Shown here: one piece after another, positions 7,223 to 7,245 of the stretch
How positions within the stretch are numbered: position 1 is the first letter of the stretch
Layout of the letters: every line of letters begins with the position of its first letter
Position numbers and translations under genes: made by a program
The notes under the pieces: model-generated
Seen by the model: the letters and a program-made list of their open reading frames with translations, nothing else
What the model was told of the DNA's origin: nothing
The model's database searches: none
Origin: Escherichia coli
GTDB lineage: Bacteria; Pseudomonadota; Gammaproteobacteria; Enterobacterales; Enterobacteriaceae
Length of the DNA stretch: 64,000 nt
Assembly (NCBI RefSeq): GCF_003790525.1
Contig: NZ_CP033635.1
Reading direction: 5' to 3' (one strand)

Positions 7223-7245
7223 GAAGTGTGATATTATAACATTTC
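7223..7245. promoter_or_regulatory. Zur box in znuA-znuCB divergent promoter region
   Basis: Minus-strand reading GAAATGTTATAATATCACACTTC is a near-palindrome matching the Zur operator consensus, lying between the znuA and znuC starts. Confidence 0.7.

Follow-up and report, generated by a model that had tools for sequence, protein, structure and literature searches.

The znu locus

The DNA analysed here (the window) is a 64-kb stretch of the E. coli chromosome that includes the genes for ZnuABC, a high-affinity zinc importer and virulence-relevant system. The genes are in two divergent units, znuA on the minus strand and znuC-znuB on the plus strand, and a near-palindromic 23-mer lies close to the middle of the 78-bp znuA–znuC intergenic region. 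The features are:

6261..7193, minus strand: znuA, periplasmic zinc-binding protein, regulated gene (NCBIfam NF007091 equivalog; MG1655 b1857)
7223..7245, no strand: 23-bp Zur box, an 11-1-11 near-palindrome centred on T7234 (sequence, consensus match and complementary pairs, see below)
7272..8027, plus strand: znuC, ABC transporter ATPase, regulated gene (NCBIfam NF007090 equivalog; MG1655 b1858)
8024..8809, plus strand: znuB, ABC transporter permease, co-transcribed with znuC, which it overlaps by 4 bp (NCBIfam NF007089 equivalog; MG1655 b1859)

The original prediction had placed the site between divergent zinc-uptake genes, and the identities of the three genes bear this out. ZnuA matches its equivalog model with a score of 525 bits against a cut-off of 268, ZnuC (536 bits) and ZnuB (534 bits) are far over their cut-offs, and the RefSeq annotation at 100 % nucleotide identity supports all three assignments. 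The gene coordinates were transferred from the MG1655 annotation. In a mechanically produced list of open reading frames znuA was extended to a TTG at 7319, but the accepted start is the annotated ATG at 7193, giving a protein beginning MLHKKTLLF.

When a 301-bp query around the site was used to search complete E. coli genomes, 5425 of 5426 contained a match at ≥95 % identity, and the match was associated with annotated znuA and znuC in every case. Over 171 bases around the site the window and K-12 MG1655 are identical at 170, and the Zur box is identical. The sole difference is C7206, which is an A in MG1655 and lies 17 bp outside the box. The zur gene lies far from the znu locus in K-12 and is not expected within the 64-kb window. 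An Rfam scan of the whole window found as the only gathering-level matches two adjacent tRNA genes on the minus strand (44723..44873), far from the Zur box.

Zur recognition motifs

The plus strand of the window reads GAAGTGTGATATTATAACATTTC at 7223..7245, and the reverse complement, the minus-strand reading, is the 23-mer GAAATGTTATAATATCACACTTC. This 23-mer has a single exact match in the window, and no match to it with up to three mismatches was found in 100 dinucleotide-preserving shuffles. Its description as a near-palindrome in the original prediction is correct, as nine of the 11 base pairs about T7234 are complementary. The site was compared to the 23-bp gammaproteobacterial Zur consensus GAAATGTTATANTATAACATTTC (Panina et al. 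2003, cited through PMC4219657 and PMC2706843) and agrees at 20 of the 22 specified positions; the two mismatches (G7226 and G7230) are both in the arm nearer znuA. The consensus was found in none of 100 shuffles at up to three mismatches, and the number of chance matches expected is 0.

Gilston et al. (2014, PMC4219657) used the crystal of Zur on DNA to derive a recognition pattern for two Zur dimers, TGWNAYRWTATAWYRTNWCA. It fits the window with no mismatches and defines a further feature:

7227..7246, no strand: 20-bp two-dimer recognition core TGTGATATTATAACATTTCA, structure-based (exact match to TGWNAYRWTATAWYRTNWCA)

Direct reading of the sequence places the purine/pyrimidine skeleton RNNNYRNNRYNNYRNNNY at 7228..7245 and a central TATA at 7235..7238. 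A central TATA is the feature that separates Zur boxes from Fur boxes (PMC4219657).

A symmetric position weight matrix (PWM) of 26 columns was built from the MG1655 ykgM, zinT and pliG operators alone, the three E. coli operators besides znu that have been validated by experiment, and the znu site was left out because circularity was to be avoided. The original prediction had proposed a PWM scan with the Zur motif as a check, and with the site-excluding matrix the znu site scored 24.56 bits, the best in the window, the next unrelated position scoring 17.0 bits. The window maxima in 200 first-order Markov simulations (mean 11.8, sd 2.4, highest 19.7) were all below the score of the znu site. 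The exact score distribution gives P = 3e-9, equivalent to 2e-4 matches of this strength expected per window, or 6e-3 if a background of 65 % A+T is used.

The runner-up in the matrix scan (17.0 bits) is TCATGTTATGAAAAAAAATAACAACT at 1125..1150, in the zwf-yebK intergenic region (925..1261). It is an inverted repeat, TGTTAT-N8-ATAACA, and was rejected as a Zur site as it has no central TATA and its score is compatible with chance, with 0.04–0.7 such matches expected per window. A different regulator, acting on zwf or yebK, may use it as an operator.

Conservation in the Enterobacterales

A ZnuC scan of species-representative genomes yielded 80 Enterobacterales loci, ranging from Citrobacter to Gilliamella. 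The divergent znuA-znuC pair was retained in all 80 of the loci fetched, with a median gap of 79 bp. In 78 of them, the best PWM match in the 200 bp upstream of znuC outscored all other 200-bp segments of its locus, and, with six exceptions among the 80, the box centre is 32–42 bp from the znuC ATG. Seven loci whose start codon was unresolved or whose upstream region was an outlier were excluded and the remaining 73 were aligned to the window, revealing a near-invariant segment:

7231..7242, no strand: near-invariant core ATATTATAACAT (in every column, ≥90 % of 73 other Enterobacterales loci agree with the window)

Mean column identity across these 73 loci is 0.81 for the box compared to 0.56 and 0.59 for the flanking intergenic segments and 0.62 and 0.67 for the adjacent coding regions. 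The box is a clear phylogenetic footprint.

In three loci that retain the divergent znuA-znuC pair, the region upstream of znuC lacks the ATATTATAAC core or has it in degraded form. Two are from named endosymbionts, Candidatus Steffania (L070) and Candidatus Gullanella (L086), and one is from an uncultured Enterobacterales MAG (L080). A possible reason is that Zur control was lost with genome reduction.

Conservation within E. coli

Over the 36 bp at 7217..7252, 5126 of 5424 E. coli genomes belong to the ≥99 % identity band, their aligned part being free of mismatches; a further 118 have one mismatch and 180 have two or three. The complete 78-bp intergenic region is identical to that of the window in 4180 of the 5424, making this the majority E. 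coli allele.

Five variant E. coli alleles were fetched and aligned. They differ from the window at positions 7218, 7219, 7223, 7225, 7226, 7245 and 7248, and no change was found in 7227..7244 among the five; the near-invariant core at 7231..7242 is also unchanged in them. Within the 23-mer, conservation is lowest in the znuA-proximal arm (GAAG, 7223..7226), both between species and within E. coli.

Two of the variants are described here individually. A two-SNP allele, G7226C plus G7248A (L008), is found in 131 complete E. coli genomes, including that of the type strain ATCC 11775, and both changes are just outside the 20-bp recognition core. This pair of changes could shift the znu derepression set-point between lineages, or the conserved TGCAA near the box (see below) could be a second contact for Zur, though we consider both suggestions improbable. 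In the other, from E. coli O157:H7 RV06, which is labelled 'culture mutant' (L006), T7218C is accompanied by C7245T, which lies at the box's outer edge; in no other sampled allele does a change reach the znuC-proximal arm of the 23-mer.

Candidate promoter elements and transcription starts

Candidate promoter elements were found on both strands in and close to the box:

7229..7237, plus strand: candidate extended -10 TGaTATTAT (TGATATTAT) of the znuCB promoter, inside the operator (reading of the sequence)
7233..7241, minus strand: candidate extended -10 TGtTATAAT (TGTTATAAT), a perfect TGnTATAAT, of the znuA promoter, inside the operator (sequence and analogy with Y. pestis)
7254..7258, minus strand: conserved TGCAA (TTGCA on the minus strand), candidate -35 of the znuA promoter (80–90 % column identity in 73 loci)

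The first two contain the hexamers that probably serve as the -10 of each E. coli promoter. In Yersinia pestis, primer extension and footprinting have shown that the Zur sites overlap the -10 regions of the znuA and znuCB promoters (PMC2706843), and for E. coli an extended -10 RNA polymerase site is marked within the crystallised operator (PMC4219657, Fig. 1B legend). As -10 motifs of both strands are inside the box, a single occupied operator can occlude both promoters.

The TGCAA is at a fixed offset of +23 from the box core in 64 of the 76 Enterobacterales loci that have the core. It most likely serves as the znuA promoter -35, in which case 16 nt separate it from TAATAT at 7236..7231. Less probably, Zur may make a second contact here without a box, as at the 'site 2' footprint of Y. 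pestis.

A scan of 7000..7500 for sigma-70 promoters and terminators recovered nothing; the rule used demands at least 4/6 matches in both hexamers, and promoters with an extended -10 and a weak -35, as the znu promoters appear to be, fail it. The genome-wide transcription start table of Kim et al. 2012, which was obtained from cells without zinc limitation, includes no starts from the Zur-controlled promoters, and repressed promoters are expected to be silent under such growth. The table does include weak plus-strand starts, supported by three reads each, at window positions 7200 and 7020. Both precede the Zur box, at 72 and 252 nt from znuC, with 7020 inside znuA, and if they are real the transcripts would need to read through an occupied operator. 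Direct control of the promoter by SoxS was also considered and set aside, as a 2026 paper reports that SoxS is unlikely to bind the znuACB promoter directly.

Zur binding and regulation

The exact sequence found here has been studied directly, and the znu Zur operator is already known in full mechanistic detail, down to the crystal structure of the repressor on the same DNA. The operator has been footprinted, mutated, gel-shifted and crystallised with Zur, and is derepressed in a zur deletion strain (PMC4219657). DNase I footprinting showed that Zur protects approximately 30 bp, and a 31-bp znu duplex was co-crystallised with two Zur dimers bound to opposite faces of the DNA (PMC4219657; PDB 4MTD/4MTE, entries that we confirmed to exist). 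Binding is all-or-none and cooperative, with a Kd-app of 8.2e-18 M^2, and repression in vivo is 6.6-fold (PMC4219657). Binding depends most on the inner TATA, which Tyr45 contacts, and on the central purines A15 and A16', and the two-fold axis falls between bases 15 and 16 of the 31-bp duplex (PMC4219657). It has also been published for this sequence that purified zinc-loaded Zur binds the intergenic DNA (7194..7271 in the window), that znuA and znuC mRNA levels change on zur deletion or zinc chelation, and that mutation of A7236 or T7237 impairs repression.

From the central TATA and the A15/A16' contacts, we infer that the crystallographic dyad falls between A7236 and T7237, and the duplex can be mapped approximately onto the window:

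7222..7252, no strand: 31-bp crystallised duplex and approximately 30-bp footprint, approximate (A15/A16' mapped to A7236 and T7237, probably to within ±1 bp)

This refines the original picture, in that the centre of the 23-mer at T7234 follows the comparative-genomics consensus whereas the structural dyad would be between 7236 and 7237 instead.

We conclude that 7223..7245 is almost certainly the operator through which Zur controls the bidirectional znuA/znuCB promoter of E. coli. Zur binding, its stoichiometry, the base contacts, zinc dependence and repression in vivo come from published work on the identical sequence, and the present analysis supports the identity of the sequence and of the flanking genes, the significance of the motif and its deep conservation. 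The original prediction had presented the site as a known regulatory site and a positive control, and it is indeed identical to the footprinted and crystallised K-12 operator. Its value here is as such a control, namely a real regulatory motif recognised at its exact coordinates from raw sequence alone.

When the cytosol is zinc sufficient, zinc-loaded Zur, a repressor of the Fur family, binds the AT-rich pseudo-palindrome as two dimers, cooperatively and from opposite sides of the helix. Each monomer reads a purine-NNN-pyrimidine element, with Tyr45 contacting the central TATA (7235..7238). With the -10 regions of both divergent promoters in the operator, bound Zur bars RNA polymerase from both and transcription of znuA and znuCB is repressed jointly. 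On a drop in zinc, Zur loses its regulatory zinc and comes off the DNA, and the ZnuABC importer is made. The operator is the switch that ties cytosolic zinc to expression of the importer.

Alternative explanations

The block might represent only a shared core promoter, consisting of two back-to-back extended -10 elements whose conservation is due to recognition by RNA polymerase, with no repressor site. The perfect TGnTATAAT of TGTTATAAT (minus strand, 7241..7233) and the good match of TGATATTAT (plus strand, 7229..7237) speak for this explanation, and a -10 element would likewise be kept at a constant spacing from the start codons. However, near-invariance extends over approximately 16 bp (7228..7243), which is more than a single hexamer, and the motif is also found upstream of ykgM, zinT and pliG, which have no promoter ancestry in common. 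Moreover, Zur binding has been demonstrated by crystallography and mutagenesis, and deletion of zur derepresses the genes (PMC4219657). The co-crystal and the derepression already refute a promoter role as the sole explanation, and we regard a promoter with no operator as very unlikely. The promoter and Zur-operator roles coexist and there is no competition between them.

An iron-responsive rather than zinc-responsive site, for Fur or another regulator of the Fur family, is less probable again, and hardly to be entertained. Fur and Zur boxes are alike in being AT-rich pseudo-palindromes made up of related repeats, but nowhere in the intergenic region does the 19-bp Fur consensus match with fewer than 7/19 mismatches, compared to 2/22 for Zur, and a central TATA, the mark of Zur boxes as opposed to Fur boxes, is found at 7235..7238. 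Finally, AT-rich palindromes may arise by chance in AT-rich DNA, as this intergenic region is, and the window does contain the weaker look-alike at 1125..1150 (17.0 bits). Yet only 6e-3 matches as strong as the znu site are expected per window even with the 65 % A+T background, and chance is incompatible with conservation across 73 loci, leaving this explanation with a negligible probability. The assignment of the box as the Zur operator stands.

Comparison with known Zur operators

The closest relative is the K-12 PznuABC operator (4MTD/4MTE; Gilston et al. 2014, PMC4219657), which shares the whole box, the flanking genes and the 78-bp spacing with the locus described here. There is no difference within the operator, and C7206 versus A is the only nearby change. 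The 23-bp length and 11-1-11 layout are in common with the gammaproteobacterial consensus GAAATGTTATANTATAACATTTC.

The znuA/znuCB site of Y. pestis (Li et al. 2009, PMC2706843) has also been footprinted and is in the orthologous position, in a divergent intergenic region of 73 bp. The core ATATTATAACAT is common to the E. coli window and the Yersinia loci. Y. pestis differs in having a second footprint without a Zur box ('site 2', PMC2706843), none having been reported for E. coli.

The ykgM/L31p, zinT and pliG operators of E. coli share the RNNNY skeleton and the central TATA with znu, and each is bound by two Zur dimers (PMC4219657). The original prediction called the znu operator canonical, which holds for its sequence but not for its affinity, as its Kd-app is approximately 150–330 times weaker than those of the zinT and L31p operators (PMC4219657). 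Among the four E. coli operators, pliG alone is weaker than znu in Zur binding (PMC4219657). The extent of repression differs too, the 6.6-fold recorded for znu comparing to 560–984-fold for zinT/L31p (PMC4219657). Of the four, znu is the only one that serves two divergent promoters.
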